Below are positions 7,818 to 38,064 of a stretch of 64,000 nucleotides of DNA, piece after piece (the stretch's first letter is position 1; each line of letters begins with the position of its first letter). A program made the position numbers and the translations under genes. Under the pieces are notes generated by a model that did no database searches, was not told the origin of the DNA, and worked only from the letters and a program-made list of their open reading frames with translations. Source of the DNA: Desulfomonilia bacterium. GTDB taxonomy: Bacteria; Desulfobacterota; Desulfomonilia; UBA1062. The stretch lies in assembly GCA_963664325.2 (NCBI GenBank), contig CAXXDQ010000003.1, positions 832,001-896,000 on the forward strand, read 5' to 3'.

Positions 7818-7818
7818 G

Positions 7819-8544: not shown

Positions 8545-8953
8545 TATCATTTTATGAATTGCGGGGATTAGCTCTCGAGAATTTAAATAACCGGCCTTTT
8601 ATTTGTCTTGTCCTTTTTTATTTTTAACTCCGTTTTATTTCTTATCCTTATTTTAAACTTCAGGTTAGATCGGCTTATAGAGGCGGATTTCATCAGGCGA
8701 CGATTCTGAAAGCGCTTTCTGTCCTGTTCGCTAAAAAAAGGCATTCTTAATTTCATTGTCCCTGCTTGTAAAAAGATAAAAGCTCCCCCGATAACTTATC
8801 CTTAAAGGTAGACATAACAATGTCCGCTCGATCTAAAAGCCGATTTGTTTGCTATAGGAAGATGCCTGGAAGATTATTTACTGTTTGTCAATTGTTGGGA
8901 TCTGAACCACTATGGTTCTCCGCAATCCCTTATTTTGTTACTGATTTTACCAG

Positions 8954-10798: not shown

Positions 10799-10931
10799 GA
10801 CATTCCCTCTAATTAAACTCACATAAAATTACACACTATATTTTATTATACCTTATATTTCGATCAAAAACAAAAAGATTGGAAATCCGGGGACATTGGA
10901 ATTTCTTCAGGTAAAAAAATGGAATCAAAGA

Positions 10932-10958
10932 GGGGTCATACGCCGATAGTTGACAAAT
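10932..10958 (+). repeat. Diverged 27-bp RAYT-associated end motif
   Basis: GGGGTCA-N12-TGACAAAT, same architecture as copies at 10976, 11952 (rc), 12482 and 12627 (rc). Confidence 0.55.
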
Positions 10959-10975
10959 TGAAATCCGAGCTGAAA

Positions 10976-11978
10976 GGCGTCAGTCCTTGAGACGGGACAT
11001 AATCTCCCTGATCTTTTTTGACATCTCTGCGTCACCGGCCAGCCTCTCCTCAAACCGTGAACATGTTTTGCTTATTGCAGTGAAATGCATCCCCCCGAAG
11101 AGTTCTCCAATCTCCCTGTTGCCCAAACCGGAGTATCTCTTCATTAAATATATCGCTGCATTTCTCTGCGGGCCTTTCTTGAAAAGCTCTTCCCTCGAAA
11201 TTTTGAATGCCTCACAGCAAATTTTTATTATTGTCCCGGGTTCCGTTTCCGCGCCGAGCCTTTTCCTGTAATGTACTCCGTCGTTAGGACCTTTGCCGAT
11301 CAATTTCTTTACCTTACCTATAAACTCATCGGTCCCCAAAATAATCTGGCTGTGCAATTTATCAAAAAGCTTCCCCCCTTTTGTTTCTTTATCAACATAT
11401 TTTTTATACTTTCTCCGGGATGCCTTTTCTTCACCGAATATCCCCAGTATCCATGAATACTCGATCCAGGGTTTTGACCTGCCTGCCTTGATGTAACCGG
11501 CATAACTGCTCCATATATATTCTTCCGGTTTTTCCGTCATGCCCGCCCTTACCGGATTAAGATGAACATATCTGCTGAGTTCAAGAAGATAGTTTTCCTT
11601 ATCCACGATTACAGCCTTGTATCTTCCCTGGAACAGGTGGCCTGAACGGTTGTACTTCCTATTGAAATATCCCGTGTATCCGCTGTTCAGACCGTGCATC
11701 ACCTTTAAAAGATTACCCTGCGGAGTCTCAATGACTATATGGTAGTGGTTGTCCATCAGGACATAGCAGTGGATCAATATGCCGAATCTGTCATGATAAT
11801 CAGCCAGCATATCAATAAACTTAAGCCGGTCTTTATCATCGAGAAAGATTTCCCTTCTCTCGTTGCCCCGGCTGATTATGTGATAAACAGCCCCGGGGTA
11901 CTCAATCCTCAATGGCCTTCCCATGCAAAATCCAATACCCGTCAAAATCTCATTTGTCAAGCTTCAAGGCCTGACACC
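10976..11978 (-). mobile_element. RAYT (Y1 HUH transposase) element bounded by inverted 27-bp motifs
   Basis: GGCGTCAGTCCTTGA at 10976 and TCAAGGCCTGACACC ending at 11978 (13/15 inverted match) enclose the transposase gene. Confidence 0.7.
10980..11924 (-). CDS. REP-associated tyrosine transposase (Y1_Tnp) with C-terminal DnaA_C-like HTH
   Basis: MGRPLRIEYPGAVYHIISRGN, HUH motif MDNHYH, GHLFQGRYKA, YVHLNPVRAG, WSSY; C-terminal IGELFGGMHFTAI. Confidence 0.92.
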   Translation of the reverse strand: MGRPLRIEYPGAVYHIISRGNERREIFLDDKDRLKFIDMLADYHDRFGILIHCYVLMDNHYHIVIETPQGNLLKVMHGLNSGYTGYFNRKYNRSGHLFQGRYKAVIVDKENYLLELSRYVHLNPVRAGMTEKPEEYIWSSYAGYIKAGRSKPWIEYSWILGIFGEEKASRRKYKKYVDKETKGGKLFDKLHSQIILGTDEFIGKVKKLIGKGPNDGVHYRKRLGAETEPGTIIKICCEAFKISREELFKKGPQRNAAIYLMKRYSGLGNREIGELFGGMHFTAISKTCSRFEERLAGDAEMSKKIREIMSRLKD

Positions 11979-12018
11979 ATCTTGGAACGTCCCTTAGGAT
12001 TCTCTCTTCCTTCATTTT

Positions 12019-12231
12019 TCATCGACCATAATTTATTATAATAAATAGAGCTATACCAATAACACTGATAATTCCTAAAATTATTAGCCCCATAGACAGT
12101 GTATAATCTGCATCATTGAGTTCAGGGTTGGAATATTTTTTCTTGTTTTTTATATCATGCCATCCCCATACAATCATAAGGACTGCCAATACCAAGGTAA
12201 TTGAAAGATAAATTATATTATCTTTGCTCAT
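12019..12231 (-). CDS. Small two-TM membrane protein (possible immunity-like protein)
   Basis: 70-aa ORF with two hydrophobic segments, AT-rich, GAGA RBS; immunity role is inference only. Confidence 0.55.
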   Translation of the reverse strand: MSKDNIIYLSITLVLAVLMIVWGWHDIKNKKKYSNPELNDADYTLSMGLIILGIISVIGIALFIIINYGR

Positions 12232-12241
12232 CTCATTCTCT

Positions 12242-12478
12242 CTAATTATTGTCCGTAGCTTTAAATGGAATTGATACTAATCCCTCAATACCAGGTTCGA
12301 GTTGAAAGGAACTTCGACCAATATCATTTGTAACATACCACCCCTTCTTTACAGTGGTTGTTGTGACTAGAGAACGATATCGCAAAGATTTTACACAATA
12401 ACTTGTTTCTACCAAACCTGCCGCTTTTACAGCTAATTTACCTCCCACTATACCTGCTCCAGCTTCAATTAATGACAA
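12242..12478 (-). pseudogene. 5'-truncated gene fragment (possible polymorphic-toxin C-terminus)
   Basis: Open frame ...LIEAGAGIVGGKLAVKAAG...KATDNN* begins at the miniature element boundary with no start of its own and ends 10 nt before the small membrane gene. Confidence 0.35.
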
Positions 12479-12656
12479 AAAGGTGTCAGGCCTTGAACCA
12501 TGACAAATCACATTCACACTCAGTCTCTTTTCACTCGTTGCCTCGGCTGATTATGTGATAAACTGTGCCTGGATACTCAATCCTTAATGGTCTTCCCATA
12601 CGAAATCTAATACCCGCTAAAATCTCATTTGTCAAGCTTCAAGGCCTGACACCTTT
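12479..12656. mobile_element. 178-bp miniature RAYT derivative with 30-bp terminal inverted repeats
   Basis: AAAGGTGTCAGGCCTTGAACCATGACAAAT ... ATTTGTCAAGCTTCAAGGCCTGACACCTTT (28/30); contains a 22-codon transposase remnant MGRPLRIEYPGTVYHIISRGNE* (12531-12599); 12534-12653 repeats 11859-11978. Confidence 0.85.
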
Positions 12657-12732
12657 GGGATCGGGAAATTGATTTGTGAAACAGGGGACAACAGTTAATC
12701 TTTTTAATTTGTTCTGACCGATTAATGTCTGC

Positions 12733-13206
12733 TTATTTGCGCCTGTAAGGTCCGCTCTTGCCGCCTGATTTTTCCATTAGGCGAATATCCGTGATTGTCA
12801 TGGATTTATCTATGGCCTTGGCCATGTCGTATATCGTTATGAGTGCTATACTGACGGCGTGTATTGCCTCCATCTCGACACCTGTTTTGCCTGAAACGTT
12901 CACTATGGCCTCGGCTTCGATGGAATTTGTATCCTCATCAGGGAAAAAATCTATCGATACCTTTTCGATTTGAAGGGGATGGCAAAGAGGAATTACAGAT
13001 GAGGTGTTTTTTGCAGCCATGACACCGGCGATTTTTGCAGTTGCAAGGACATTCCCCTTGGAAACGCTGCCCGCCGTGATAGCCTGGAAGGCCTCCCTGC
13101 TCATTGAAATTTTACCGCGGGCCGCGGCGATGCGCTTTGTCGGGTCTTTTTTACCGACGTCCACCATATTGATGTCGCCGTTTCTGTCTATATGCGTAAG
13201 CGGCAA
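12733..13206 (-). CDS. moaC: Cyclic pyranopterin monophosphate synthase
   Basis: LTHID..G.INMVDV, IPLCHPL, KTGVEMEA, IYDMAKAID, KSGGKSG. Confidence 0.96.
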   Translation of the reverse strand: MPLTHIDRNGDINMVDVGKKDPTKRIAAARGKISMSREAFQAITAGSVSKGNVLATAKIAGVMAAKNTSSVIPLCHPLQIEKVSIDFFPDEDTNSIEAEAIVNVSGKTGVEMEAIHAVSIALITIYDMAKAIDKSMTITDIRLMEKSGGKSGPYRRK

Positions 13207-13496: not shown

Positions 13497-14004
13497 CGAA
13501 GCTTCCTCCTGTTTCAAATATTGTGCGGTGATTATATAGTGGCGGCGGGGTCAGTTTGTCAAGCAGCCTGAAAACCTTTTCCCTTCCGGCAGGCGGGGTT
13601 TTTGCCAGAAACAGGCGCGTAAGGTTGTCGACCACGATCTCCTCGTCATAACAGACCTTCTCGAAATCGGCCTCGCCTCTTGAAAAACGGTGTATATGAA
13701 CAAGTTCATGCATCATGACGAATACAAAAAAAGTGAGCATGTCTATATCCGTATTTTTTTCAAGGAATTTCATGATGTCTTCATCATTGAGGCTGATTCT
13801 GTAATGGAGAACCTTGTTGCCGGACTCGCAACGAAGAAGCCTTGCAAAGGCATCAGTTATGCCTGCATTCTCATTCCCGTCGGCCGAAGTCGAGACATCA
13901 TACCTGTTTTTGAAATCCGTCCTGGTATTATGAAAAACTATCCTGTCGGCCATATCGGAACCGACCCTCAAAACATTTCTATGGAAAGGATTAAACTGTC
14001 CCAT
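13483..14004 (-). CDS. Hypothetical protein with HExxH motif
   Basis: [10 protein letters not shown] plus downstream EE; overlaps the start of the FmdB-family gene. Confidence 0.65.
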
Positions 14005-24157: not shown

Positions 24158-25420
24158 TCAAGACAAGCTTGATATTACAGTTTTTATGAGTTTAGTCAGA
24201 TTGGAAAGCCCGCCTGATAATCTTTTTATATACAGCATTGAGATGCTTTTTGATTTTTGATCCTTGTAACGTTTTTTCATAAAGGAGGACGAAGGGAAGG
24301 CCGCTTCAAAAACAAACTTCACCTTCTGCTTCAAAGGCAGCTGTTTTATTACGTACAGGTACTGCCTGGTCGATGTCTTCATCGGCTGGGAGTTGAGCTT
24401 GAGGATGAATGCATTTCTGTTTGAATTCAGGCGGCTTTCAACCGGAAGGGCTTTGCCGAAAAGTTCTTCACAGATACGTGATGCAAACATGAGGATATCC
24501 GTCAGGCCGAGCTTTTCAAAAATGCCTGAAAGCTCGTCCCAGTCGATCAGGTGATTCCATTTTTCCGCGATGAAATATGTTTCATAAAAGTGAAACAGTC
24601 CCGAGACAGCTGTGCCGTGGCAGTAATATACGTGCAGTATCTGATGGATAAGGCAGACCGTATGCGAAAGCATAAAAAGCCCCGGGATATTTTGGAAAAA
24701 TCTGTTATCCGGTATGGGCACAAGCTGTTCAAAAACCCAGCTGTTAAAGTCAAATCCTTTTTGCTGATATTGCTTGAGGAGCTTCCAGTGAAGTTCGATG
24801 ATCAGACCGTTTGCTGCAGTATTTCTTATCATCAGGTGTTTATCTTCAAGGATAGAGGATGACACGGGCCCCGAATGGGTTTTGTCTTCAACTAAAACAC
24901 TGTATCCGGCATTCTTCAGCTTGTCAGCAACCGCATTCAGGTTTTCATCACTGACGAGCAGGTCTGTATCGCACATATTTCTCAGAGATGTGTCTTCATA
25001 AAGAGTTAAAGCCATTACGCTGCCTTTGAGCATAATGACAGGCTGAAACACAGGCAGGACAGCAGGGAAGACGTTTCCTGAGAGCTCTTTATAGCGCAGT
25101 TCGTTTGTATGCTTTATTCGCATTCTCATGGCGCTGAAATTAAGCCATATATCCATGGGAATCTGTTCAAGAAGGGTTTTCAATTCGGGTTTTTTGCTGT
25201 TCATCAATGCCGCAACACCTTCACCAAGCGCTACTCTTTCAAAAAGCCGCCAGTCGTCAGCCGAGTACTCGGTCCAGGCAGCTTCATTGCACCTGTCCGA
25301 GAGGCATTTGCAGATGTCGAGGTAGACCTTCAGCAGATTATCTGCATTGTCATAACGCTCTTCAAGGGCCTCAAGAGGAATGTTCGTATTCTTTGGTCTG
25401 CTCTTTCCATGATCTGGCAT
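24158..25420 (-). CDS. Nucleotidyltransferase family protein (NTP_transf_5-like), RiPP-cluster associated
   Basis: MLKG...LY....R.MCDTDLLV and IELHW motifs; start uncertain (overlaps the ABC gene end). Confidence 0.8.
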   Translation of the reverse strand: MPDHGKSRPKNTNIPLEALEERYDNADNLLKVYLDICKCLSDRCNEAAWTEYSADDWRLFERVALGEGVAALMNSKKPELKTLLEQIPMDIWLNFSAMRMRIKHTNELRYKELSGNVFPAVLPVFQPVIMLKGSVMALTLYEDTSLRNMCDTDLLVSDENLNAVADKLKNAGYSVLVEDKTHSGPVSSSILEDKHLMIRNTAANGLIIELHWKLLKQYQQKGFDFNSWVFEQLVPIPDNRFFQNIPGLFMLSHTVCLIHQILHVYYCHGTAVSGLFHFYETYFIAEKWNHLIDWDELSGIFEKLGLTDILMFASRICEELFGKALPVESRLNSNRNAFILKLNSQPMKTSTRQYLYVIKQLPLKQKVKFVFEAAFPSSSFMKKRYKDQKSKSISMLYIKRLSGGLSNLTKLIKTVISSLS

Positions 25421-27242
25421 ACATGCCGCCCTTTTTTATGAGTTCATCATGAGTTCCTGATTCAACAATACTGCCTTTATCCATTACATGTATAATATCA
25501 GCCTGCATGGCCGTGGTGAACCTGTGGGTTATGATCAACGAGGTCTTTCCCCGAGCAAGAGCTTTAAACCTTTTGAGCCAGTCGTTTTCAGCCCACGAAT
25601 CCATGGAGCTTGTCGGTTCGTCAAGCATCAGGATTGCCGAGTTTCTCAAAAAAGCCCTCGCAAGGGCAACCCTCTGCCATTCCCCCAGGCTCAGGTCCGA
25701 ACCGCCGAACCACTTTCCGAGAACGGTTTCATAACCATTGGGAAGTCTTGAAATCGGGACATCGGCACCCGATGAGACCGCAGCCCTTTTTATATCATCC
25801 AGACCAGGTCCGGATTCCATACTGCCAAAGGCGATATTATCAAATGCCGTTGCATTGAAATGAACCGGTTCCTGAAAGAGCACGCTTATCCTTCCCCTGT
25901 GCCTTTTCAAATCCAGATCCTTCATATCGACACCGTCTAGAAGCACCCTGCCGCTTTCAGGGTCATAGAACCTGCATATGAGTCTGGTAAGAGTGCTCTT
26001 GCCCGCTCCGTTCGGGCCTACAATGGCTGTAGTTATGCCTGCTGGTATCTTAATGCTGAATTTCTTTATGACGTGATCTGCGCCGCAGGGGTATCTGAAA
26101 GTTGCATTGTCGAATACGATACCGTCTTTAAGGGAAGAATCGAATTCCAAGGGTTCAGCAGGGTTCTTCACCGTTGGCTCGATGCCGAAGAATACGAAGA
26201 GGTCGTCAACGAACATGCTGTTCTTGTATATAGTTCCAACATTGCCCAGTACATTTTTCATCAGACCCTGACCCTGGTTGAATGCCTGGTAGAGCATTGC
26301 GACTTCTCCCAGGTTGGCCTTTCCGTGTGCAGCCCTTAAAAGAATCCATATAACTGCAATTCCTATCACTGCCATGCCGAAAAGTTGAGCAGCGAATTCT
26401 GCCACGGCCTGCTCCCTGGTAAGCGCAATCTTTTCGTTTCTCAATACGGCCCTCAAGTTCTGATAACTTTTCCTGAAACTGTCACCCAGGCCGTAAAGCC
26501 TTATTTCCTGTGCGGAGTTCCTGTGGGTAATCATATGGTCGTAATAACCGGCCATCCTGGAGTCGGGCGTTCTCATTATTCTCCAGCTGTTCATCTTCCT
26601 CGAGTAGTAGCCTATTATGAACAGTGCGGGAATTGTGCCCACGAATAAGAGGACAGGCAGCAGAACTCCGAATGAAAAAAGTATGCCTGCCATTGCAAAA
26701 AGGGTGATGCAGCTCTGTACGAGCATGCCCAGGTTGTCGAGCAGAGTCTGCGGCATGTTCTTGGCATCGTTCTGCGCCCTGTAAAGCTTATCGAACGATT
26801 CCGGGGATTCGAAAAAGGCCATGTCCATCTCAAGGGCTTTTTCGTGGATCCTGTTTGTCATGGTGTCCTGTATGATTTCCGTCTGCTTTATTTTTACAAG
26901 TTTCTGTGCAAAACCGGCGATACTGTTTGCCAGATATATGATAATAAACAGCAGGGCCAGAGATACTGTTTTCGAGGCGTCGGTTCCCCTCCCCGAAATA
27001 GTAATGGTCAGGCTGTTTATGAAGGCTTTTGTCAGATACACGGTTGCAACCGGAAGAATGCCCTGAACGATAAGAAGGCACGCCCACAGTATCGTCCATT
27101 TACGGGCGATGTCCCAGACAAGGGCGGTAGCCTTGAAGAGGTTCCTTGTCAGCAAACTTATATTGTCCCAGATTTCTTTCGGGCTTTTGAATATCTTTTC
27201 ATCCACAAAGAAAACTATCTCATTAGATTTGATTCGATACAA
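25371..27242 (-). CDS. ABC exporter, fused permease-ATPase (no C39 domain)
   Basis: TM helices, GPNGAGKST, LSLGEWQRVALAR, LDEPT, THR; start uncertain. Confidence 0.92.
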   Translation of the reverse strand: MYRIKSNEIVFFVDEKIFKSPKEIWDNISLLTRNLFKATALVWDIARKWTILWACLLIVQGILPVATVYLTKAFINSLTITISGRGTDASKTVSLALLFIIIYLANSIAGFAQKLVKIKQTEIIQDTMTNRIHEKALEMDMAFFESPESFDKLYRAQNDAKNMPQTLLDNLGMLVQSCITLFAMAGILFSFGVLLPVLLFVGTIPALFIIGYYSRKMNSWRIMRTPDSRMAGYYDHMITHRNSAQEIRLYGLGDSFRKSYQNLRAVLRNEKIALTREQAVAEFAAQLFGMAVIGIAVIWILLRAAHGKANLGEVAMLYQAFNQGQGLMKNVLGNVGTIYKNSMFVDDLFVFFGIEPTVKNPAEPLEFDSSLKDGIVFDNATFRYPCGADHVIKKFSIKIPAGITTAIVGPNGAGKSTLTRLICRFYDPESGRVLLDGVDMKDLDLKRHRGRISVLFQEPVHFNATAFDNIAFGSMESGPGLDDIKRAAVSSGADVPISRLPNGYETVLGKWFGGSDLSLGEWQRVALARAFLRNSAILMLDEPTSSMDSWAENDWLKRFKALARGKTSLIITHRFTTAMQADIIHVMDKGSIVESGTHDELIKKGGMYARSWKEQTKEYEHSS

Positions 27243-27344: not shown

Positions 27345-27527
27345 ATGAAGAAGGAACCATGGAAAAAACCTGAATTGATTGTCCTGGTGAAAAACCAGGC
27401 TGAAGAGGCCGTATTGAACGGATGCAAAGGTGGCGGTTCCACAACAAGCTTTTTATCACATAATGATAATTGTCATTCAGATGCTCCAGCCTGCACAACA
27501 TTATGCAGTTCTCCGCTAGCAAGCTGA
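27345..27527 (+). CDS. RiPP precursor peptide A1 (60 aa)
   Basis: MKKEPWKKPELIVLVKNQAEEAVLNGCKGGGSTTSFLSHNDNCHSDAPACTTLCSSPLAS; GAGGG RBS; four local paralogs. Confidence 0.88.
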   Translation: MKKEPWKKPELIVLVKNQAEEAVLNGCKGGGSTTSFLSHNDNCHSDAPACTTLCSSPLAS

Positions 27528-27591: not shown

Positions 27592-27795
27592 ATGAGAAAA
27601 GTAAGCAGAAAGAAAATAAGGACCGAGCCAGAGATGACCGTAATAGTCAGGAACATGCCTGAAGAAGCCGTTTTAACGGGATGCAAGAATGGCCCTGTAT
27701 ACACCGTGTCGGCTAATGATTACTGAGGGGGCTGTTATGCCCTTGGGGCATACAATCCTTGTCAGAACATATGCAATGCTTTGCAGGCTTCATAG
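27592..27795 (+). CDS. RiPP precursor peptide A2 with in-frame TGA (pseudogene or Sec recoding)
   Basis: MRKVSRKKIRTEPEMTVIVRNMPEEAVLTGCKNGPVYTVSANDY*GGCYALGAYNPCQNICNALQAS; TGA at 27724-27726; the family Cys/Ser pattern continues past it. Confidence 0.75.
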
Positions 27796-27843
27796 ATACG
27801 ACCATAAAAATGTCTTGAAATATTGAATCGCTCCACGGCATGC

Positions 27844-28881
27844 ATGAAGATGAATATTAAGATGGATCAAACTATTCAGGAAGACCGGCCTTCGCAATAT
27901 ATATTTCAGGGAGGAGAACTTCATCTTTCAAACTTAGGCCAGCTCGAGTTGCTGCGAGCAATGATGGAGCGCCGTGTTCCATTGCGCACGATGGTCCGCG
28001 GATTCAGCATGCATCCGTTCATCAGGGACGGGGATGTGCTCGTTATTTCGCCTCTAAACGGAAGGAAGCCTTCTCACGGTGATGTGGTTGCATTTACACA
28101 ACCGGTTATGGGAAGGCTCGCAGTTCACCGCATTGTCGGCAGATCAAAGTCGGGCCTGATTATACGCGGAGACAATTGCCATGAAGCGGACAGCGTCGTA
28201 ATGGCGGATCGCATACTGGGGAGAGTGACGCGCATCGAACGTTGCGGACGGACTGTCCGTACCGGTCTGGGCTATTCCGGCATGCTGATTGCAGCATTAA
28301 ATAAAGGTGATCGTTTGATGCGTGTAAAACATGTCATCAATACTCCCCGCCGGGCAGCAAGCTATGCGCTCAGGTACCTGCAGGCGGTTTCCTGCTATCG
28401 ACTTCTTCTCAGAAGACTGGCATTGGCAACTGTTATCGAAAAGGCCGATGAAAGCGATATGGAAGCCGTTCATAAGCGCTTCAATCCGTATAGTCCGTAT
28501 CGAAAGCAGCCAGATAATCCAGAAGTAACCAACTGGGTTGCCAGGCGCTCAGGCAAAGTACTTGGCTTCATACAGCTTGTGTATCATCCCGAAAAGCATT
28601 TCCCATGGGTTGGGTTCTGGCTTTTTTCTCTTCATGTATGGAGTTTATACCGAGGGTTTGGCGTAGGCGAAAAGCTTGCCCGCCGGGTTATTGAAAAAGC
28701 TGTCGAAATGGGTGCCCAAGAGCTCAACCTTGTTGTTTATGAAGACAACCTGAGCGCCATCAGGCTATATGGTAAACTCGGATTTGTGCATGCAACACTG
28801 CCAGGTCTCGAACCGATGTTTTTATCCGAACAGCAAAGGACCGGGCGAAGAAGAATAGTCATGCAAAAGCAATTGGGTTGA
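27844..28881 (+). CDS. S24/S26 peptidase - GNAT acetyltransferase fusion
   Basis: RGFSMHPFIRDGD, VHRIV, RGDN (signal-peptidase-like Ser/His); C-terminal YRGFGVGEKL...N.SAIRLYGKLGF (GNAT); start uncertain (27823-27862). Confidence 0.85.
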   Translation: MKMNIKMDQTIQEDRPSQYIFQGGELHLSNLGQLELLRAMMERRVPLRTMVRGFSMHPFIRDGDVLVISPLNGRKPSHGDVVAFTQPVMGRLAVHRIVGRSKSGLIIRGDNCHEADSVVMADRILGRVTRIERCGRTVRTGLGYSGMLIAALNKGDRLMRVKHVINTPRRAASYALRYLQAVSCYRLLLRRLALATVIEKADESDMEAVHKRFNPYSPYRKQPDNPEVTNWVARRSGKVLGFIQLVYHPEKHFPWVGFWLFSLHVWSLYRGFGVGEKLARRVIEKAVEMGAQELNLVVYEDNLSAIRLYGKLGFVHATLPGLEPMFLSEQQRTGRRRIVMQKQLG

Positions 28882-29044: not shown

Positions 29045-29221
29045 TTATGATTGCACATCCCCACTGCAAACAGGACATTCTTCTTCGCCGCTGATCTGGC
29101 ATTCTACATTCGTGTTATTCGGGCCCTCAAGCAAATATGGCCTTTTGCACGCGGCGAGTATACTTTCAGCACTCTTAATACGCACTAACGCAATCAATTG
29201 GGGAACATGCCACTGCCTCAT
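29045..29221 (-). CDS. RiPP precursor peptide A3 (58 aa)
   Basis: MRQWHVPQLIALVRIKSAESILAACKRPYLLEGPNNTNVECQISGEEECPVCSGDVQS; same leader and Cys/Ser pattern. Confidence 0.82.
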   Translation of the reverse strand: MRQWHVPQLIALVRIKSAESILAACKRPYLLEGPNNTNVECQISGEEECPVCSGDVQS

Positions 29222-29433
29222 ACAAGCAATCATCTCCCTTACGCTTTAAGATACCATATGCTGTTAATTGATATTCCTTCCGACAAAAATCAACGATAAG
29301 TATAAAATATCAATCGATCGTCAGAAAGCAAGAAAAAACAGAGTTCACAGTTCAGGGTTAAAGGCTGAAGGTTCACAGTTCGTATTATATGGGTGGTCGG
29401 CGGGGACGGTCCCGGTTGCGGTGCGCTAAGCGT

Positions 29434-30546
29434 TTAAGGGCTGTTTCCTCCGTCCCTAATCGCTGCTGCCCTTGCGTGAGCCAACTCGCAGAAGTAGGGA
29501 GTTGCGCCGTCCAGTTCGCCTGTCTCCAAGTGCGCATGGGCAGGGCACCACAGGCACAGGTTTACTATTGGGCATTTGCGGCATGAGTCGAGGAAAGATC
29601 TTTTGTCAGAACGCATATCCCGGATTTTCGGAACAGCTTCCCAAGCGTCTTTCAGTGCGACCTTTCTTAGATCGCGGGTCGTTTCATCGGCCCACAACGA
29701 TGAGCAGAGGCGGAACCTTCCGTCATAGCTTACATTAAAGCTCCCGTTGCCTGCACCGCAGTGGAACAGGTGGTTGCAGTCGATGTGGCCGAACTTATCG
29801 TTTATCAATAAGCTGCAATTTTTTATCAAAGCGCCGAACCGCTCTTCATCTGACTTTTCCAGCTCGATCATCTCTGCAGGGGTCAAACGTTCAGAACGGA
29901 TTTCAGCGTTTCTTTTCTCGTCGCCGTCGAAACGCAGATGAAGCTGCGGATCGAACCTGAAAAAGTCTTTTGTCCGGGCGCGGCAGAAATCGGCAATTCT
30001 TTTCTGCTCGTGCAGGTTTGACCTGATTGCCATTGTCTTAAGCCTGATCCTGATGCCGTTTTTTATAAGCAGGTCAAGTCCAGTCATGAATTTTCCGAAT
30101 GATCCGGGGCGTCTGGTAACGCACTCATATGTTTCCTTTGTCACGCCGTATACTGTCGTTTCAATGTCACGCGGCGGGAATTTTTTAAAAAGCCTGATGT
30201 GTTCTTCATTCAGCAGGGCGGCGTTTGTAAAAACCGAAACCAGCAGTCCCTTTTTCTTCAGCATCATATAAATTTCGGTAAAATCCTGCCTTAGAAGAGG
30301 TTCTCCACCTGTTAACAAACACCAGACGGCTCCCATATCCACGGCCTGTGCGGCTATATCCGCGATCTCTCCGACGCTTAATTCTCCGGATAGGGCATCA
30401 TTGTCGCCGGCGGGCAGATTGATATAGCAGTGGCGGCAGTTCATATTGCATCTGGCGGTTATTTCGATATCAAAGGATATCGGAGAACGTTTTGACTTAA
30501 GCCTGTCCCAGAGGCCGAATCGCTGTATCTCAATCTTTTCAGACAC
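29434..30546 (-). CDS. Radical SAM/SPASM peptide maturase
   Basis: CNMNCRHC, TGGEPLLR, CGAG...C...CRKCPIVNLCLWCPA...C. Confidence 0.92.
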   Translation of the reverse strand: MSEKIEIQRFGLWDRLKSKRSPISFDIEITARCNMNCRHCYINLPAGDNDALSGELSVGEIADIAAQAVDMGAVWCLLTGGEPLLRQDFTEIYMMLKKKGLLVSVFTNAALLNEEHIRLFKKFPPRDIETTVYGVTKETYECVTRRPGSFGKFMTGLDLLIKNGIRIRLKTMAIRSNLHEQKRIADFCRARTKDFFRFDPQLHLRFDGDEKRNAEIRSERLTPAEMIELEKSDEERFGALIKNCSLLINDKFGHIDCNHLFHCGAGNGSFNVSYDGRFRLCSSLWADETTRDLRKVALKDAWEAVPKIRDMRSDKRSFLDSCRKCPIVNLCLWCPAHAHLETGELDGATPYFCELAHARAAAIRDGGNSP

Positions 30547-30555
30547 TTGTGAGGT

Positions 30556-30855
30556 TCAATTTTTTATGGAAAGGATGCGGCGGTTGACCATCTCAGAGGC
30601 AAAGCCTATTACATCCTTTTCTATCTCACCGGTATCAGATGAAAACTCGTCGGAAAGTTCAGCCGCAACTTGTCCAAGTGATTTCCCTCCGTCAAGCTTC
30701 TTCCATATGGCCTTGCCGGTATCGTTCAATGTGTACAATTCGTCGTCCGCATCTCCAATGCCTGCGATGAGCGGTACGATGATGATATCGCCCTCGATCT
30801 CCCGTGAAACTATGTCATCCGATAGTGTACAGATAGTTTTAGCATCAATATTCAT
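30556..30855 (-). CDS. PqqD-family RiPP recognition element
   Basis: VSREIEGDIIIVP...YTLNDTGKAIWKKLDG...EIEKDVIGF. Confidence 0.92.
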   Translation of the reverse strand: MNIDAKTICTLSDDIVSREIEGDIIIVPLIAGIGDADDELYTLNDTGKAIWKKLDGGKSLGQVAAELSDEFSSDTGEIEKDVIGFASEMVNRRILSIKN

Positions 30856-30881: not shown

Positions 30882-31058
30882 TTATGAAGGATTCCAGGTG
30901 CTGCAGTTAGGGCAACCAGGCCCCGTGTCGTTACATAGCCTGTCACTGATTGATGGACCCTCGTGGCCTCCGCCTTCGTCCTTGCAGGTGGCAAGGACAT
31001 TTTCTTCCGTATTGCTTCTCGCCAGTACTATAAGCTCGGGCTTCTTCCATCTTTTCAT
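30882..31058 (-). CDS. RiPP precursor peptide A4 (58 aa; not in ORF track)
   Basis: Manual translation MKRWKKPELIVLARSNTEENVLATCKDEGGGHEGPSISDRLCNDTGPGCPNCSTWNPS; AGGGAG RBS. Confidence 0.88.
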   Translation of the reverse strand: MKRWKKPELIVLARSNTEENVLATCKDEGGGHEGPSISDRLCNDTGPGCPNCSTWNPS

Positions 31059-31113: not shown

Positions 31114-32277
31114 TCAATTGTGAACATATTCATCGGACTGACCGATTCTCTCCTTCCAATCCTCAACCTCCCAGCCGAATTCATTTTTAGCAAGCCAGCC
31201 CATCCACCGCGCCTGAGCATGTGCAGCCTCACAGAGATATTTGACTGGGGTATCAAGAGTCTGATGTTCGCTCCATGACTTTGCGGGGCACTGTTCGCAG
31301 AGTCCCTTCAGAAAACATAATGCACAGCGTTTCAGATATTCCGGGTTTTTCGCACGCATTTCTCTCAGATCCCTAAATTTGTCCAGGATTGTTTCAAGTG
31401 AATACTTGCATGTATCATATGTCAATTCAGGCGCCCGTACACCCATGCAGGGTTGTGCGGTGCCGTATGCATCGATGCACATGCCGCAGCCTGCCCCGCA
31501 CCTGAACAGATTTTCGCCCGGCGGTCCCATGAATTTCGATGCGAACTCGCTTGTGCTCTTTCTGAATTTATCAGCATCCCTTGTGAGGATTCTCAAGCCC
31601 TCCTCAGGTGACAGGCGGATTGATCTGATCATTGCGTTTTTTTCAACGTCATCGCATCTGTTCCTTAGGTCGAAGAACATCGAATAGCTCGGCCTTTTCG
31701 TCATCCATCGTATTGTCTCGGCCCATGCCTCAAACTCGTCCATCTCGTATCTGTTCTGAGGCAGAAGCGCCGACTTTATAATGAACGGGACTCCACGCTT
31801 GATAAGCAGATCGACACCGCGCCGGTACTGTTTGAACGAGCCTTTCGAGCGTGTCACAGCTTCATAGGATTTCTCATGCATGCCGTAGGAGGTTATTTCG
31901 ATTGTCACAAGCGGCGGGACGCGTTTGAAAAGCTCGGCAAGTCTCTCATCGATAAGCCTGGCATTAGTGAAAACAAGGACTTTCATGCCCAGCTTTCTTG
32001 CAAAAATGTAAAGCTCTTCGAAATCAGGTCTCAACAGCGGCTCTCCGCCGGTGAATCTTACCTTCATACATCCGAGCCTTTCGGCCTGAATGAGTATCTC
32101 CTTTATTTGTGCGGTGCCCATCTCGCTGTCTTTGGCCCTTCTGTCGTTTGCTGGTAGATTGATGCAGCAGTGGATGCAGTCGTTGTTGCACCTTTCGGTC
32201 AGTTCTATATCAAGACTGCCTAACTTTGGGGCAATCGGCTTATACATTCCTTTTATCTGCCTGATATATTCGCTCAT
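31114..32277 (-). CDS. Radical SAM/SPASM peptide maturase
   Basis: CNNDCIHC, TGGEPLLR, CGAG...C...CALCFLKGLCEQCPA...C; paralog of 29434-30546. Confidence 0.92.
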   Translation of the reverse strand: MSEYIRQIKGMYKPIAPKLGSLDIELTERCNNDCIHCCINLPANDRRAKDSEMGTAQIKEILIQAERLGCMKVRFTGGEPLLRPDFEELYIFARKLGMKVLVFTNARLIDERLAELFKRVPPLVTIEITSYGMHEKSYEAVTRSKGSFKQYRRGVDLLIKRGVPFIIKSALLPQNRYEMDEFEAWAETIRWMTKRPSYSMFFDLRNRCDDVEKNAMIRSIRLSPEEGLRILTRDADKFRKSTSEFASKFMGPPGENLFRCGAGCGMCIDAYGTAQPCMGVRAPELTYDTCKYSLETILDKFRDLREMRAKNPEYLKRCALCFLKGLCEQCPAKSWSEHQTLDTPVKYLCEAAHAQARWMGWLAKNEFGWEVEDWKERIGQSDEYVHN

Positions 32278-32293
32278 AGTTGTTATTGTAATA

Positions 32294-32467
32294 TTAACTC
32301 AATAGAATTTCACTGCATGTATCACAAGCTTGGTAACACACCCCGCTTTCATCTGCGGGTGAACTTATCGGCTCAACCCCTTTACAGGATGCCAGTGCCA
32401 TCTCTTCATGATTGCTCCGCACAAGTATGGTCAGTTCAGGTTTTTGCCATTCCTTTTTCTCTTCCAT
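32294..32467 (-). CDS. RiPP precursor peptide A5 (57 aa; not in ORF track)
   Basis: Manual translation MEEKKEWQKPELTILVRSNHEEMALASCKGVEPISSPADESGVCYQACDTCSEILLS. Confidence 0.88.
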   Translation of the reverse strand: MEEKKEWQKPELTILVRSNHEEMALASCKGVEPISSPADESGVCYQACDTCSEILLS

Positions 32468-32486
32468 CACTATTCTCGTTTTAAAA

Positions 32487-34508
32487 TTATTTTACACGCG
32501 CAGAAATCAGCATCTTTTCAATTTTTTCAACAATTACAGCTGACTTGTCAAAGTGCATTGTGAAGCATGGGATCTCATTTACTATCTGCTCCAGTACATC
32601 GAGTTCCTTTCGCCACCATTCGGCAGTTACCATTGGCCGTATAAGCGTTGCGAGAAGCCCTTTCCATACTGCCTTTTTATCGGAGAGAGGTTCGATTTTG
32701 TTTTTTGTGTCCTGTTTCAGAAAAAGGATCGCCTTTAGCGGAGCTGTTGAAGGAGATACATCTGCCGTAGTGCCGTGGCTCCATGTGCCGTGGACACGCC
32801 AGCCTTCAGGCCATTTTCTTATGACATTCCTGTCGTCGCAAAGGATCTCGGCATTCAATCCGCTTTCTTTCCTGGCCGCCTTCAGTATTTCCATTGCCGT
32901 TGACTTTCCCGCCTCGGAATGACCGACAAATACCAGGCCATGGCCGTTTATAATGGCGGCAGCCGAGTGTATGAGCACGGCGTTTCTGTCTGCAAGCAAG
33001 GGCCCAAGCCATATCTGGTCGGTCGGAAAGAGCGAGAGGGATTGAAATCCGGTATCTATTGTTCGCTCTTCGTCTCGTGGCGGGCTGTAGATTGTGGCAT
33101 GGGTATGGTCTGAATTGAATACAGCCACACGGTGCAGGCTGGGATCTTCGGGCCGGGGTGAGATGCCGAGATAATAGAACGCCCCGTTCTTTTCCGAGAT
33201 GGCCCATGGCGGCTTGCGGTAGATTTCCCGGCCAAGGTCTTTGCCGGTGAGGTCGGGAAGTTCGAAGTGGTGTCTTAATGTTACATTGTCATCGCCGGGT
33301 CCTGACACCTCGAATGCCTTCAGTTCTTCCTTGATTTTTATTATACTTAAATCAAGATCGCTTTCAATACGTACCGTGATGCCTGCAATCTGAAAATATT
33401 TTCTATGATTTTTCTTCCACATGGTCTTGAATTTCTGCGCTTCCTTCGCAACCTCACACAGATAAGGTACAGGTGCCGAAAACCTGCCTGTTTCAAGATA
33501 GGAATAAACCGCGCACCAGCGGCAGTCGGAACGATTGTCACACGAGCCGCAATTGTTGCGCCATTCCTCGCCTCCCCGAACCTTATCTGCGCAGGACGGG
33601 ATGAAAGCATCCCAGGCCTCTTTGAATGACCCTTTACGAATGTCATACCTCAAGGCAGGGTCTTTTATGAAGCTGCACCAGGACATCCCTCCATAGGGGT
33701 CGATATGAAAATCCCGGCGGCCTTCAATGCACCTGGCAAACAAACGGTCATCTCCGGGGGCGACAGATCCGCAGGCCGGATCATCTACTGCATTGTCATT
33801 CAATTCAGTTGTACGTTCATAATGCGAAAGATCTGGTTTGTCGAGTTCTATCACGTCACAGGGCTTAAGACGCTGACATGCAATTTCATGATTTCTCTCA
33901 GGGGAACCGCTGGATGACAGGTAGAGCCAGGGGGCACCGACACGCCAGTGTTTGCTGAGATGTTTCGCGAGTTCGATCATCTTATTCCACTGATGCCAAT
34001 TGGCGGCCATTGGAATGAGCTGGACTATAAAACCTGCACCTGCTTTCTTGAGATACGAAAAGCCCTGCATGACCTGTTCGAATCCGTGAGGATTGCCTGT
34101 AACATCCTCATATACCTTCGGGTCCGCTCCATAGAGGGCTATCATTTTACTGCCCTTGCGGGTAAGAAGACGGGCGATTTCATGGGTGATCAGCGTGCCG
34201 TTGGTGTTTATTGTGTATCCTATGGATTTGTTTGTTATGTAGTCGAATATATCGGCAAAATCCGGCCTGAGCATGGGCTCGCCGCCTGAAATTCCCCATT
34301 TCCTGCAGCCCATGCTTCGGGCTTCATCGATAATCCGCCTTATATTGTCAAAAGACATTTCTTCATTTTTCTCAGGGGAGTCCGCCGGAATCCTGAGCCA
34401 GCAGTGCCGGCACCGGTTGTTGCAGCGGTAGGTAAGATCTATATTCCCTTCAAGCGGGAGACGGGGCATGTATGAACACTTTCTTGATATATATGTCTTA
34501 TTATTCAT
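32487..34508 (-). CDS. Radical SAM/SPASM enzyme fused to HPr-kinase-like P-loop domain
   Basis: CNNRCRHC, SGGEPMLR, CGSCDNRSDCRWC; C-terminal IHSAA...GHSEAGKST...LCDDR. Confidence 0.9.
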   Translation of the reverse strand: MNNKTYISRKCSYMPRLPLEGNIDLTYRCNNRCRHCWLRIPADSPEKNEEMSFDNIRRIIDEARSMGCRKWGISGGEPMLRPDFADIFDYITNKSIGYTINTNGTLITHEIARLLTRKGSKMIALYGADPKVYEDVTGNPHGFEQVMQGFSYLKKAGAGFIVQLIPMAANWHQWNKMIELAKHLSKHWRVGAPWLYLSSSGSPERNHEIACQRLKPCDVIELDKPDLSHYERTTELNDNAVDDPACGSVAPGDDRLFARCIEGRRDFHIDPYGGMSWCSFIKDPALRYDIRKGSFKEAWDAFIPSCADKVRGGEEWRNNCGSCDNRSDCRWCAVYSYLETGRFSAPVPYLCEVAKEAQKFKTMWKKNHRKYFQIAGITVRIESDLDLSIIKIKEELKAFEVSGPGDDNVTLRHHFELPDLTGKDLGREIYRKPPWAISEKNGAFYYLGISPRPEDPSLHRVAVFNSDHTHATIYSPPRDEERTIDTGFQSLSLFPTDQIWLGPLLADRNAVLIHSAAAIINGHGLVFVGHSEAGKSTAMEILKAARKESGLNAEILCDDRNVIRKWPEGWRVHGTWSHGTTADVSPSTAPLKAILFLKQDTKNKIEPLSDKKAVWKGLLATLIRPMVTAEWWRKELDVLEQIVNEIPCFTMHFDKSAVIVEKIEKMLISARVK

Positions 34509-34884: not shown

Positions 34885-36366
34885 ATGAAAAAATTGATCC
34901 TGCTTGTTTCAGTTCTGTTTGCCGGTTGTGTTCCTGCTGCAGTAAATGACGGAAAAGAACCGCCGGCCAACCAGTATCTTGCCGATTCACCATGGAATAT
35001 GACTCACCGGAATCCCTACTGCCAGGCGTCTTCCCCATATCCCGGACCGGACAAAGGCATAAGCGGCAAGGATTACATAATCGGGACGCCCGGCTGTATC
35101 ACCATGCCCATTTCAGGAAAATATCCTGACGGCAGCCGTGTCGTGTGGGGCAACAACCTGACAAATGTCTTCAAGCTGGGCACGAAAAACAACAAGTTAT
35201 CCGAGATCGATGAAATAAAAAAAGACTCAAGCGGCAGCGGAGACGGCGGCCTCGTCGAGAAGGGAATATCAGGTGCATATACTCTTATTGACAGGGACGG
35301 GGTGTTTTTCGTGCCCGATATGACAAGGATATTTGCATACTGCGATTCAGTAACGGGCGACCCGGGGTCAAAGATCAAAATAAAGGGTGTTTACAGCATT
35401 CCTGCCGGGTATCTGCATGGAGGTACGGATAAAATTGTCGGCCTTGTCATGACATATGACGGCATGCTCGTATTTGCAACGAACACGGGATTGATAGGTG
35501 CAGTTTCGCGAGGCTTCGACAGGGCATATTTCCTTTATCTCGGTGAGGATGATGAGTTGTCCAATTCAATTGCCTGCGATGAACAGGGTGGTATCTATGT
35601 CGTAACGAGCAGGAAGATGTACCGTGTCCAATGGACGGGGGCAGAGCTTACGACCGATGAAGCAAAAGGGGGCTGGACTGCCGATTATGAAACAGGCAGT
35701 GACCAGTCGGGGATTCGCCTCGGCAAGGGCTCAGGCACAACCCCGACACTTATGGGCGTGGGCAGACAGGACAGGTTTGTAGCCATAACCGACGGGAGTG
35801 AACTCATGAACATGGTTTTGTTCTGGCGTGATAAGATTCCTGAAGGCTGGCAACAGATTCCAGGTACAAAAGACAGGAGGATTGCAGCGCAGGTGCCGGT
35901 AAGGTTCGGCGACTCTGATGCGAAGCATTCGCAGACGGACCAGTCTCTGTGTGTCCGCGGTTACGGTGCCGTTGTTGTCAACAATGAACTCGGTGCAGAT
36001 CTTGGCAGCCGGACGCTCAACATCATTATTTCCGGGGTCCCAGGCATAGCACCCAAGGGCATTGAAAAATTCGAATGGAATCCTGAAACAAGGACGCTCT
36101 CATCTGTCTGGGCAAACAGGCAGATATCGATACCCAACGGCATACCCTGCATGAGCGCCGCAACCGGCCTTTGCTATGCAATCGGAAAGCGAGGCATATT
36201 CTGGACGCTCGAGGCTCTTGACTGGAATACAGGAGAATCTGTTTTTTATTCAAACATAGGAATAGGCCTTCAATACAACAGCGCATATGCAGCGACGCAG
36301 GTAGGGCTTGAAGGTTGCATATACTCCGGAACGGCAATCGGGCTTGTAAATCTCAGGCCTGAATAA
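34885..36366 (+). CDS. Hypothetical lipoprotein (probable beta-propeller)
   Basis: Lipobox LFAGC; beta-rich Gly/Trp motifs; fold is inference. Confidence 0.75.
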   Translation: MKKLILLVSVLFAGCVPAAVNDGKEPPANQYLADSPWNMTHRNPYCQASSPYPGPDKGISGKDYIIGTPGCITMPISGKYPDGSRVVWGNNLTNVFKLGTKNNKLSEIDEIKKDSSGSGDGGLVEKGISGAYTLIDRDGVFFVPDMTRIFAYCDSVTGDPGSKIKIKGVYSIPAGYLHGGTDKIVGLVMTYDGMLVFATNTGLIGAVSRGFDRAYFLYLGEDDELSNSIACDEQGGIYVVTSRKMYRVQWTGAELTTDEAKGGWTADYETGSDQSGIRLGKGSGTTPTLMGVGRQDRFVAITDGSELMNMVLFWRDKIPEGWQQIPGTKDRRIAAQVPVRFGDSDAKHSQTDQSLCVRGYGAVVVNNELGADLGSRTLNIIISGVPGIAPKGIEKFEWNPETRTLSSVWANRQISIPNGIPCMSAATGLCYAIGKRGIFWTLEALDWNTGESVFYSNIGIGLQYNSAYAATQVGLEGCIYSGTAIGLVNLRPE

Positions 36367-36429
36367 TATAGTTCAATTTAAAAACTCTGCGGCAGGTGAT
36401 CCTGTCATAACATGGCTTGGAGGTTGGGG

Positions 36430-38064
36430 ATGAGGAATGTAAGGGTAACTGGTTGTATTCCGGTTTTTATTCTGCTGCTGGCCGTTGCTGTTGCCGGATG
36501 CAATGTTTCCGGAAAGGTTACCGAAGCGGGCACTGGCATTGCCGGCCTTGCCGTGAAATTGAGCGGAGACAAAACCGCAAGCACAGTAACCGATGCCCAG
36601 GGCAATTATAAGTTTTCAGTCGGCTATGGGAGTTATACCGTAATCCCGGGCCCTGACGGGGGTGAGGTTTTCTTGCCTGCCGCCAGACAGGTCTATGTGA
36701 GAAGCTTTGGAGGGGCAAAAGCCGATTTTTCAAGGCTAAGCGATAACAACGTTTACTGGGACCCGTCGCTTGTGGTGCCGATCCAGTCACATCCTGATAT
36801 TCGTGGATTCAAAGTAATCAGGGGCCTGATCCATATGCACTCGATATATTCGCATGACGCGTGCGACAACAAACCTTTCATTGACGGCAAGCCCAACACG
36901 GAATGCCTTTGCCAGCTTCGCGAGGCTGTTTGCACGACCAATCAGCAGTTTGTGATGATGTCCGACCATTCCGACAATTTCGCATGGCATGAATTCCCCG
37001 ATGTATTGCTCTATCAGCCCGAAGAAGGTGACGAACTGGTCTATAAGGATGGCAGGCCGGTAGCGAATATAATCAAATGCGACTGCGGAAACAATACAAT
37101 AATAACTGCCGGAAGCGAAAACAACCTCATGCCCATAGGGCTCAAAAGGATGCCTGACGGCACTCCTGAAGAGCGGAACACGTTATTTAGGAGTACGAGT
37201 GTAGATACGGTGGATAAACTTCATGCATTAGGCGCCATGGTTTTTGTTACACACCCGGAAAGCTGGATAACTTCAGATCTGCTTGACCTGCCGATAGACG
37301 GCATCGACGTCTACAACCTGCATGCTAATATTGATCCCGGCATCAGAGAGGATTATTTAGGGCTTCCATCCCTTGGATTTATTCCGGGCATACTGGATAT
37401 GCTTACACCTTCATGGGCCGATGCCCACCCGGACCTTTTGCTGCTGAGTTTTCTTGAAGAATTGAAGCCCGATCTTACCCATTGGGACAAGCTCCTTTAC
37501 TATCGCCACACGACCGGTTTTATGGCAACGGATGCCCACCGGAATTCCCTGCCTTTCCTTCTTCCGGACGGAGACAGGGGTGACAGCTACCGCCGTATGA
37601 TGAGATGGTTTGCCAACTATGTCCTTGTAACGGACCGGGGTCTTGAAGAAATAGAAAACGCCGTCTATAAAGGCCGCATGTATGGTGCTTTCCAGGTGTT
37701 CGGTGAGCCGGTCGGATTTGATTTTTATGCCGAAGCAGGTAGCCAAACCTTTGAAATGGGAGATAATGTATCTTTGGCCGAGTCTCCCGTACTGCATATA
37801 AAAGCCCCCGAATTTTTCAGAATGGATCCTAGCCTCGATAAACCCGAACTGAGGATCAGCCTTATAAAGGCAGGTCAGGACGGAGGAACGGTGGTGGCAG
37901 GGAGTCTGAATTCAGACCTTGCTTACGCTGTGACCGAAAAAGGTGCATATAGAGCTGAAATCAGGATTGTTCCCTACCATCTCAGGAAATGGCTTGGAGA
38001 CCATACCAAACCGTTTATAAAGGAGTACCCCTTTATTTATGCAAACCCTATTTTTATAAATTGA
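36430..38064 (+). CDS. Lipoprotein with Ig-like N-terminal domain and PHP-like metallohydrolase domain
   Basis: Lipobox VAGC; T.TD..G.Y.F motif; IHMHSIYSHD, SDH, THP, TDAH metal ligands; start may be 36412. Confidence 0.75.
   Translation: MRNVRVTGCIPVFILLLAVAVAGCNVSGKVTEAGTGIAGLAVKLSGDKTASTVTDAQGNYKFSVGYGSYTVIPGPDGGEVFLPAARQVYVRSFGGAKADFSRLSDNNVYWDPSLVVPIQSHPDIRGFKVIRGLIHMHSIYSHDACDNKPFIDGKPNTECLCQLREAVCTTNQQFVMMSDHSDNFAWHEFPDVLLYQPEEGDELVYKDGRPVANIIKCDCGNNTIITAGSENNLMPIGLKRMPDGTPEERNTLFRSTSVDTVDKLHALGAMVFVTHPESWITSDLLDLPIDGIDVYNLHANIDPGIREDYLGLPSLGFIPGILDMLTPSWADAHPDLLLLSFLEELKPDLTHWDKLLYYRHTTGFMATDAHRNSLPFLLPDGDRGDSYRRMMRWFANYVLVTDRGLEEIENAVYKGRMYGAFQVFGEPVGFDFYAEAGSQTFEMGDNVSLAESPVLHIKAPEFFRMDPSLDKPELRISLIKAGQDGGTVVAGSLNSDLAYAVTEKGAYRAEIRIVPYHLRKWLGDHTKPFIKEYPFIYANPIFIN

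Follow-up and report, generated by a model that had tools for sequence, protein, structure and literature searches.

A radical SAM/SPASM enzyme fused to a ScmC-type, HPr-kinase-like domain in a peptide-maturation cluster whose precursors end in Cys-x5-Ser

The system described here lies in a 64,000-nucleotide stretch of DNA from a Desulfomonilia bacterium (contig CAXXDQ010000003.1, positions 832,001 to 896,000 of the forward strand), which we call the window. [quoted passage not shown] It encodes a protein in which a radical S-adenosylmethionine (rSAM)/SPASM enzyme is joined to a C-terminal kinase-like domain, together with two further rSAM/SPASM maturases, a PqqD-like protein, a peptidase-acetyltransferase fusion, an ATP-binding cassette (ABC) exporter, a nucleotidyltransferase and small frames for the precursor peptides (Table 1). 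The nucleotidyltransferase matches PF14907 over profile positions 3-249 of 249 at 93.3 bits (cut-off 31.2) and is the sole match to that family in this genome. An earlier note, made from the DNA letters alone, had described the fusion as an rSAM enzyme with a C-terminal domain of about 300 residues bearing a His, a Walker A motif (GHSEAGKST) and an Asp-Asp motif, had likened that domain to HPr kinases, and had called the distant gene a nucleotidyltransferase; on all three points our analysis agrees with it.

Table 1. Genes, precursor frames and candidate catalytic residues of the cluster, by position in the window.
Feature	Position	Strand	Remarks
PF14907 (NTP_transf_5) nucleotidyltransferase	24158..25420	-	overlaps the end of the ABC gene, same strand
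ABC exporter (permease/ATPase, 623 aa)	25371..27242	-	
Precursor w1, ends ...CSSPLAS	27345..27527	+	intact
Precursor w2, ends ...CNALQAS on read-through	27592..27798	+	interrupted by TGA
S24/signal-peptidase-like domain fused to GNAT acetyltransferase (352 aa)	27823..28881	+	
Precursor w3, ends ...CSGDVQS	29045..29233	-	intact
Radical SAM/SPASM maturase A (370 aa)	29434..30546	-	PF04055, PF13186
PqqD-like peptide-binding protein (99 aa)	30556..30855	-	TIGR03859 E 1.3e-9, below cut-off
Precursor w4, ends ...CSTWNPS	30882..31058	-	intact
Radical SAM/SPASM maturase B (387 aa)	31114..32277	-	
Precursor w5, ends ...CSEILLS	32294..32470	-	intact
Radical SAM/SPASM + ScmC-type P-loop kinase-like fusion	32487..34508	-	673 aa; probably 660 aa from Met14
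ScmC/HPr-kinase-like domain of the fusion	32487..33404	-	about aa 369-673, ~305 residues
Catalytic candidates Asp558-Asp559 (in CDD, residues 557-559)	32832-32837	-	
Catalytic candidate Lys535 (in GHSEAGKST, residues 529-537)	32904-32906	-	
Catalytic candidate His514 (in IHS)	32967-32969	-	

The protein-collection entry for the fusion frame (P0003) is 660 aa long and starts at Met14. Residues 25-164 match the Radical_SAM family PF04055 (E 1.5e-24), with a CxxxCxxC motif at residues 29-36, and a SPASM-type CxxCx5CxxC motif follows at residues 320-332. The kinase-like domain begins at about residue 369 (RKYFQIAGITV...). To gauge conservation we compared 43 fused homologues of 60-85% identity, in which the rSAM cysteines 29, 33 and 36, the SPASM cysteines 320, 323, 329 and 332, and, in the kinase-like half, His514, Gly529, Gly534-Lys535-Ser536-Thr537 and Asp558-Asp559-Arg560 are all invariant; both halves therefore look catalytically competent. 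The His, P-loop and Asp-Asp motifs are also 86-99% conserved across a wider, family-level sample of 69 diverse relatives of the domain (alignment A1).

Protein P0003 carries the precomputed Pfam family PF27840, named ScmC in the Atlas, as do 119 of its 120 listed homologues, and 107 of those 120 carry PF04055 and PF27840 together. Taken singly, the window domain scores, in NCBIfam, 31.6 bits (E 1e-7) against the ScmC model TIGR04249, whose cut-off is 125, and matches HprK_rel_B at E 0.003. A local Pfam search returned a single weak match to an ABC P-loop and nothing relevant, and a phmmer search of the domain against the PDB gave no match. The relatives in A1 place the domain better: ScmC TIGR04249 matches 67 of the 69, HprK_rel_B 61, the HPr(Ser) kinase/phosphatase model TIGR00679 33, Hpr_kinase_C (PF07475) 28 (best E 2.5e-10), HprK_rel_A 23, and a phosphoenolpyruvate carboxykinase (PEPCK) model 7. 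Searched against the PDB, the A1 profile finds HPr kinase/phosphatase (HprK/P; 1jb1/2qmh) at E 6e-4 over 62 positions that span the His, the P-loop and the Asp-Asp pair. Nominally better matches to ABC transporters cover 24-37 residues of the P-loop only, and we set these aside as motif-level. By an exhaustive HMMER search (E<=0.001), the relatives of the domain number 3,720 clusters at 50% identity, taking in stand-alone proteins of ~300 aa and fused proteins of ~650 aa; the length range of the fused form holds 1,159 clusters at 90% identity.

The predicted structure of the domain (AlphaFold 2; mean predicted local distance difference test score, pLDDT, 95.8; predicted template-modelling score, pTM, 0.92) points the same way. 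By Foldseek, it is closest to ATP-dependent PEPCKs (best E 4.8e-8) and also finds HprK/P 1kkl_B (E 6.9e-6, TM score 0.50 on the target). By VIA-align, 248 residues in both lobes align to PEPCK with a Z of 13.2 and a root-mean-square deviation of 5.9. On this modelled fold and the family matches, the C-terminal domain is a P-loop domain of the HPr-kinase/PEPCK fold. HprK/P and PEPCK have the fold and the arrangement of P-loop, His and Asp-Asp in common with the window domain at 9-15% sequence identity. Unlike HprK/P, the window domain occurs outside any HPr substrate context, and unlike both enzymes it is a two-lobed, 305-residue, mini-PEPCK-like domain embedded within a peptide-maturation enzyme. 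When the kinase domain was modelled together with precursor w5, ATP and Mg, the predicted complex scored 0.00, where the mark was 0.32, a result that speaks neither for nor against binding.

The precursors share a leader with the consensus W-x-K-P-E-L-x-V-L-V-R...E-E-x-V-L-x-x-C-K and a core with two or three Cys that ends in Cys-x5-Ser-COOH. Five such precursors had been claimed for the window, each with Ser exactly six residues after the last Cys; w1, w3, w4 and w5 are intact and bear this out, and w2 does so only by read-through of a TGA codon. We then took a census of 12,788 small open frames in the window and 39 related loci, using a hidden Markov model (HMM) built from small frames selected by their leader. 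The model took in the core as well, which slightly favours similar ends, and the leader gives most of the score. Fifty-six frames matched. Ser is the C-terminal residue in 46 of the 56 and Thr in 2, and the remaining 8, window w2 among them, are truncated or degenerate. Of the 48 Ser/Thr-ended frames, 44 (42 with Ser, 2 with Thr) place the last Cys exactly six residues from the end. Ser at the precursor C-terminus is far commoner than by chance: of the 12,732 small frames of this DNA that the model did not match, 9.4% have a terminal Ser. Among the 30 sources with any match, 28 have at least one Ser/Thr-ended precursor; the 10 loci that lack a match are mostly short contigs. Retention of the terminal Ser in kinase-bearing homologous clusters, the point on which the earlier note had said its proposal could fail, is what we find. 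That both non-Ser ends at this spacing are Thr points to a need for a hydroxyl group at this position.

The frame of w2 is broken at 27724-27726, and beyond the TGA it runs on to a normal Cys-x5-Ser end. The window genome encodes selA and selB. Despite this, we do not accept a conserved selenocysteine: in L022, the closest related locus, the w2 orthologue reads TGG (Trp) here, Rfam at gathering thresholds gave no match anywhere in the window, and the hairpin downstream of the TGA is unremarkable (z -1.94; 7 of 200 shuffled sequences fold as well). The TGA is more likely a nonsense change or a read or assembly error, and w2 may be a dead fifth precursor. The selB match is itself split over two adjacent frames (G000:C4:883195-885037, minus strand; L040/L045) that cover model positions 1-45 and 45-579, which could reflect a frameshift in the gene or an error of assembly.

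The 39 related loci come from very different lineages: Smithella, Geobacter, Anaeromyxobacter, Aminicenantes, Acidobacteria, Chloroflexi, Planctomycetota, Synergistaceae, Bacillota, Actinomycetes, Chrysiogenales and the archaeon Methanolinea. Their conserved set comprises the ScmC domain, two or three rSAM/SPASM enzymes, a PqqD-like protein, an S24 peptidase with or without GNAT, the ABC exporter and the PF14907 nucleotidyltransferase. By tblastn and jackhmmer, the common order is [rSAM-]ScmC domain, rSAM B, PqqD, S24(-GNAT), rSAM A, ABC exporter and PF14907, and in most of the longer loci the orthologue of maturase B adjoins the kinase domain. PF14907 occurs in 14 of the 39 loci; of the 12 with a full ABC exporter, 11 have it, the exception being L039. 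Of a separate set of 14 control genomes, the same two, Deinococcus radiodurans and Bacteroides thetaiotaomicron, are the only ones matched by the ScmC model, at scores under its cut-off, and by PF14907, at scores over its own, an overlap that hints at a wider co-occurrence of HprK/ScmC-like proteins with PF14907.

The kinase-like domain stands alone in L027, L028, L030-L033, L036 and L038. In two of these proteins (L027:2020-3045 and L030:8222-9181) the first ~14 residues of the rSAM part are followed by the start of the kinase domain; the L027 protein reads ...PRLPLEGNFDLTYR joined straight to RYFKIAGITV.... These junctions suggest that the stand-alone form in L027 and L030 arose by in-frame deletion of the rSAM/SPASM part. 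The precursors vary with fusion state. Ser/Thr-ended precursors of fused loci have three core Cys in 25 of 29 cases, two in 3 and one in 1, those of stand-alone loci have two in 5 of 5, and those of loci whose fusion state is unclear have three in 7 and two in 7. The number of core Cys thus tracks the number of rSAM enzymes, in a small sample of related loci, a pattern suggesting that each rSAM enzyme forms a single Cys-derived crosslink.

The ScmC name leads to the SynChlorMet (SCM) cassettes, which consist of ScmC, the PqqD-like ScmD and the rSAM/SPASM enzymes ScmE and ScmF (NCBIfam TIGR04248-04251, Pfam PF27840). The SCM and window cassettes have in common the PF27840 domain, a PqqD-like protein, two rSAM/SPASM enzymes, an S24/S26-type peptidase and Cys-rich precursors whose last Cys is followed by a short tail. 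In the window cassette, the domain is instead fused to a third rSAM enzyme, the leader differs, and GNAT, the ABC exporter and PF14907 are present beyond the SCM set. The window proteins score far below the SCM equivalog cut-offs (ScmC 31.6 of 125 bits, ScmD 26.5 of 100, ScmE 86 of 400, ScmF 82 of 400). Since ScmD, ScmE and ScmF fall so far below, the window cassette is, by these scores, a relative of the SCM cassette that is distinct from SCM itself.

A bona fide SCM cassette occurs elsewhere in the same genome (L052, G000:C7:466500-486000; genes at 8700-12778, minus strand). There ScmC (153.7 bits) and a signal peptidase I domain make up one fused protein of 509 aa; ScmF, ScmE and a PqqD-like gene come next, and two Cys-rich precursors (12918-13184 and 13596-13871, minus strand) end in ...EGNGF and ...VGSGF. 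Loci L036-L039 carry a second, SCM-like cassette beside the main one (for example L038:4333-5863, minus; L039:4823-6463, minus; L037:1401-3221, plus), with a ScmC paralogue, then an S24 peptidase and two rSAM genes; its precursors are rich in Gly, Ser, Thr and Cys and are not Ser-ended. For comparison with the window precursors, we assembled 12 SCM-type candidates, selected by composition and position alone: 2 from L052, 3 from the second cassettes of L037-L039 and 7 from other genomes of the phylum, the last drawn from 15 regions around bona fide ScmC genes.

Among the characterised relatives of the fused domain, the kinases of lasso peptides act on peptides. According to PMC9266682, PadeK acts on the paeninodin precursor by phosphorylating its C-terminal Ser, that Ser is extremely conserved in lasso clusters that bear a kinase, and a His-Lys-Asp-Asp motif is essential in these kinases. 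PMC6993621 shows that PsmK (poly)phosphorylates the terminal Ser in pseudomycoidin and that PsmN, from a family of uncharacterized nucleotidyltransferases, is needed to add a hexose to the phosphate. What the earlier note had said of PadeK, PsmK and PsmN agrees with these papers. The lasso kinases PadeK, ThcoK and PsmK and the window domain are alike in their HPr-kinase-like P-loop core with His-Lys-Asp-Asp, in precursors with a conserved C-terminal Ser, and in the frequent presence of an uncharacterised nucleotidyltransferase next door, although PsmN is likened to PF14907 by description only. Unlike in lasso systems, the scaffold in the window cluster would be made by rSAM/SPASM enzymes, and the kinase is fused to a maturase; no asparagine-synthetase-like lasso cyclase, B protein or B2 protease was found among the proteins of the window cluster.

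The same genome also supplies what we take as a positive control, a lasso-type cluster (L053, G000:C8:73000-92500; genes at 6778-10350, minus strand). This cluster, on another contig, encodes an HprK-related kinase of 355 aa beside cyclase-like and PqqD-like genes, all scoring under the curated cut-offs, and its candidate precursor (8712-8975, minus strand) ends in ...DLHFS. By hhalign, the window domain matches the kinase of this cluster over 59 columns, corresponding to the catalytic core, with a probability of 96.5% and E 8.3e-10. Genes for REP-associated transposases flank L053.

We propose that the ScmC-type domain phosphorylates the terminal Ser of the precursors, as lasso-peptide kinases do, and put the probability of this at roughly one half. 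The proposal draws on the HPr-kinase identity of the domain, the invariant His-Lys-Asp-Asp residues, the conserved Ser end, the lasso-type control in the same genome and the recurrence of PF14907. In such a pathway, whose enzymatic steps, phosphorylation included, we infer from the families and settings of the proteins, the PqqD-like protein would bind the leader and each rSAM/SPASM enzyme would install one Cys-derived crosslink. The ScmC-type domain would transfer phosphate from ATP to the side-chain hydroxyl of the terminal Ser, in the manner of PadeK, ThcoK and PsmK. Where present, the PF14907 nucleotidyltransferase may extend the phosphate, by analogy with PsmN, which is needed for hexose addition in pseudomycoidin, a step that we hold with less confidence than the phosphorylation itself. 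The S24 peptidase would remove the leader, the fused GNAT domain would acetylate the product, and the ABC transporter would export it.

Several findings weigh against this proposal. At the level of the domain, the window sequence has no kinase match in Pfam, where PF07475 is absent at E<=10, and it scores just 16.7 bits against TIGR04355 (cut-off 200). It is also nearer in sequence to the ScmC of rSAM cassettes than to the lasso kinases, since hhalign aligns it to the bona fide ScmC of this genome over 154 columns (probability 97.0%, E 9.1e-11) as against 59 for the lasso-type kinase. ScmC-like domains have varied fusion partners, rSAM here and signal peptidase in L052, a trait that is typical of substrate-recruiting domains too. 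At the level of the precursors, the census loci are related by descent, so that the counts are not independent events, a caveat lessened by the cores being otherwise highly variable: mean column identity is 34%, and the only invariant positions are the leader Pro, Glu, Leu and Cys-Lys. Loci L037-L039 have Ser-ended precursors and no PF14907 within 10 kb. The 12 SCM-type candidates end in F, F, G, A, K, R, N, G, V, D, H and T, so that Ser, the rule at Cys-x5 in the window precursors, ends 0 of 12; the adjacent ScmC paralogues retain His, GKS and Asp-Asp. By this comparison, a ScmC-type kinase does not in itself imply a terminal-Ser substrate. In the same candidates the last Cys is followed by 6-9 residues (six in 4 of them, seven in 6, eight and nine in 1 each), and because they keep a similar tail without Ser, phosphorylation alone fails to account for the fixed Cys-x5 spacing. 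From these sequences, what all ScmC-associated precursors have in common is a short stretch beyond the last Cys, and a Ser at the very end is confined to the window clade.

The earlier note had gone further and read the system as a lasso tailoring module joined to an rSAM-crosslinked scaffold. Much of that description stands, namely the HPr-kinase kinship, the His-Lys-Asp-Asp residues, the Ser end and the recurrent PF14907; the lasso origin finds no support, given the assignment to PF27840. Because ScmC is native to rSAM/SPASM cassettes and the window domain is closer to ScmC than to the lasso-type kinase, the kinase, on this sequence relationship, appears to belong to a lineage native to such cassettes and not to be a grafted lasso module.

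The likeliest alternative is that the ScmC-like domain is an active, ATP-using enzyme whose target is something other than the hydroxyl of the terminal Ser. The target might be another Ser or Thr, the C-terminal carboxylate, or the 6-7 residue tail, read so as to set the register of the crosslink at the last Cys. The role would be shared with SCM cassettes, and the terminal Ser would serve another enzyme, for instance in direct nucleotidylation by PF14907 or in a C-terminal rSAM reaction. The paralogues that keep His, GKS and Asp-Asp beside precursors with a retained tail and never a Ser end fit this alternative, as does the specificity of PF14907 to the window clade in this genome. So does the structural comparison, in which PEPCK, an enzyme with a carboxylate substrate, is the best match to the two-lobed model as a whole. 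A mycofactocin maturase model is moreover among the top matches of the rSAM domains, and the mycofactocin maturase acts on a C-terminal residue. Other evidence argues for the hydroxyl: both non-Ser ends are Thr, Ser-ended precursors persist where PF14907 is missing (L037-L039), and the lasso kinases, which share His-Lys-Asp-Asp and are the sole characterised peptide-directed relatives in the available literature, phosphorylate the C-terminal Ser. On balance, we consider a target other than the terminal hydroxyl rather unlikely.

A more elaborate form of the phosphorylation proposal would make the fusion bifunctional on the last seven residues of the precursor, its kinase lobe docking on and phosphorylating the terminal Ser and so setting the register of the radical crosslink at the Cys six residues upstream, with PF14907 then adding a nucleotide or sugar tail through a phosphodiester; this we regard as decidedly unlikely in full. 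Class III and IV lanthipeptide synthetases use kinase-then-elimination chemistry, and phosphorylation of the terminal Ser could likewise be transient, with elimination to dehydroalanine and addition of the upstream Cys giving a C-terminal lanthionine-type ring. Such a ring would account for the fixed Cys-x5-Ser and the six-residue spacing of nearly all Ser/Thr-ended frames (44 of 48). It is nonetheless very improbable, as no lyase or cyclase domain was found among the cassette proteins, SCM-type precursors keep a similar spacing without Ser, and every Cys is already matched by an rSAM enzyme. We give as little credence to a domain that is mainly a nucleotide-binding scaffold, recruiting or holding the precursor for the fused maturase and leaving it covalently unchanged: the differing fused maturases (rSAM here, signal peptidase in L052) and the retention of the domain in L027 and L030, where the rSAM part has apparently been deleted, would suit it, but a His and a base/metal Asp pair are invariant beyond the P-loop, and the cluster already has a separate PqqD-like protein for leader binding.

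Should the terminal Ser be phosphorylated, C-terminal Ser phosphorylation would extend beyond lasso peptides, and the cassette would define a new family of rSAM-crosslinked peptides and give the ScmC family its first function. The bifunctional form, if true, would imply a new and phylogenetically very broad class of RiPPs, found in bacteria and methanogens, with an rSAM-crosslinked scaffold and a phospho-conjugated tail. The ScmC family is large and has no assigned function, the function of SCM is uncharacterised, and the cassette is spread over many anaerobic phyla and a methanogen. The Cys-x5-Ser rule ties this family to one specific reaction that is cheap to test, and the match between core Cys number and rSAM number offers a second testable rule.

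The fused architecture and the ScmC name are already in databases, and the domain itself is not new. New here are the Cys-x5-Ser tail rule and its restriction to the window clade, the connection with the Ser kinases of lasso clusters and with PF14907, and the match of Cys count to rSAM count. A literature search, with most subscription journals outside its reach, returned only lasso-peptide or unrelated work and none on this system. Sactipeptide and ranthipeptide systems resemble the window cluster in their rSAM/SPASM enzymes, PqqD-type leader recognition, Cys-rich cores and ABC exporter; for neither do we know of a described kinase-like domain or terminal-Ser rule.

Two genes on the plus strand diverge from the fusion gene. 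The first (34885-36366) encodes a protein of 493 aa with a lipoprotein-like N-terminus and no family match, and the second (36412-38064) one of 550 aa with a weak CarboxypepD_reg-like match. Their products share 82% identity with proteins encoded beside the L001 cassette, and since such relatives occur next to the cassette in that locus only, the two genes probably lie outside it.

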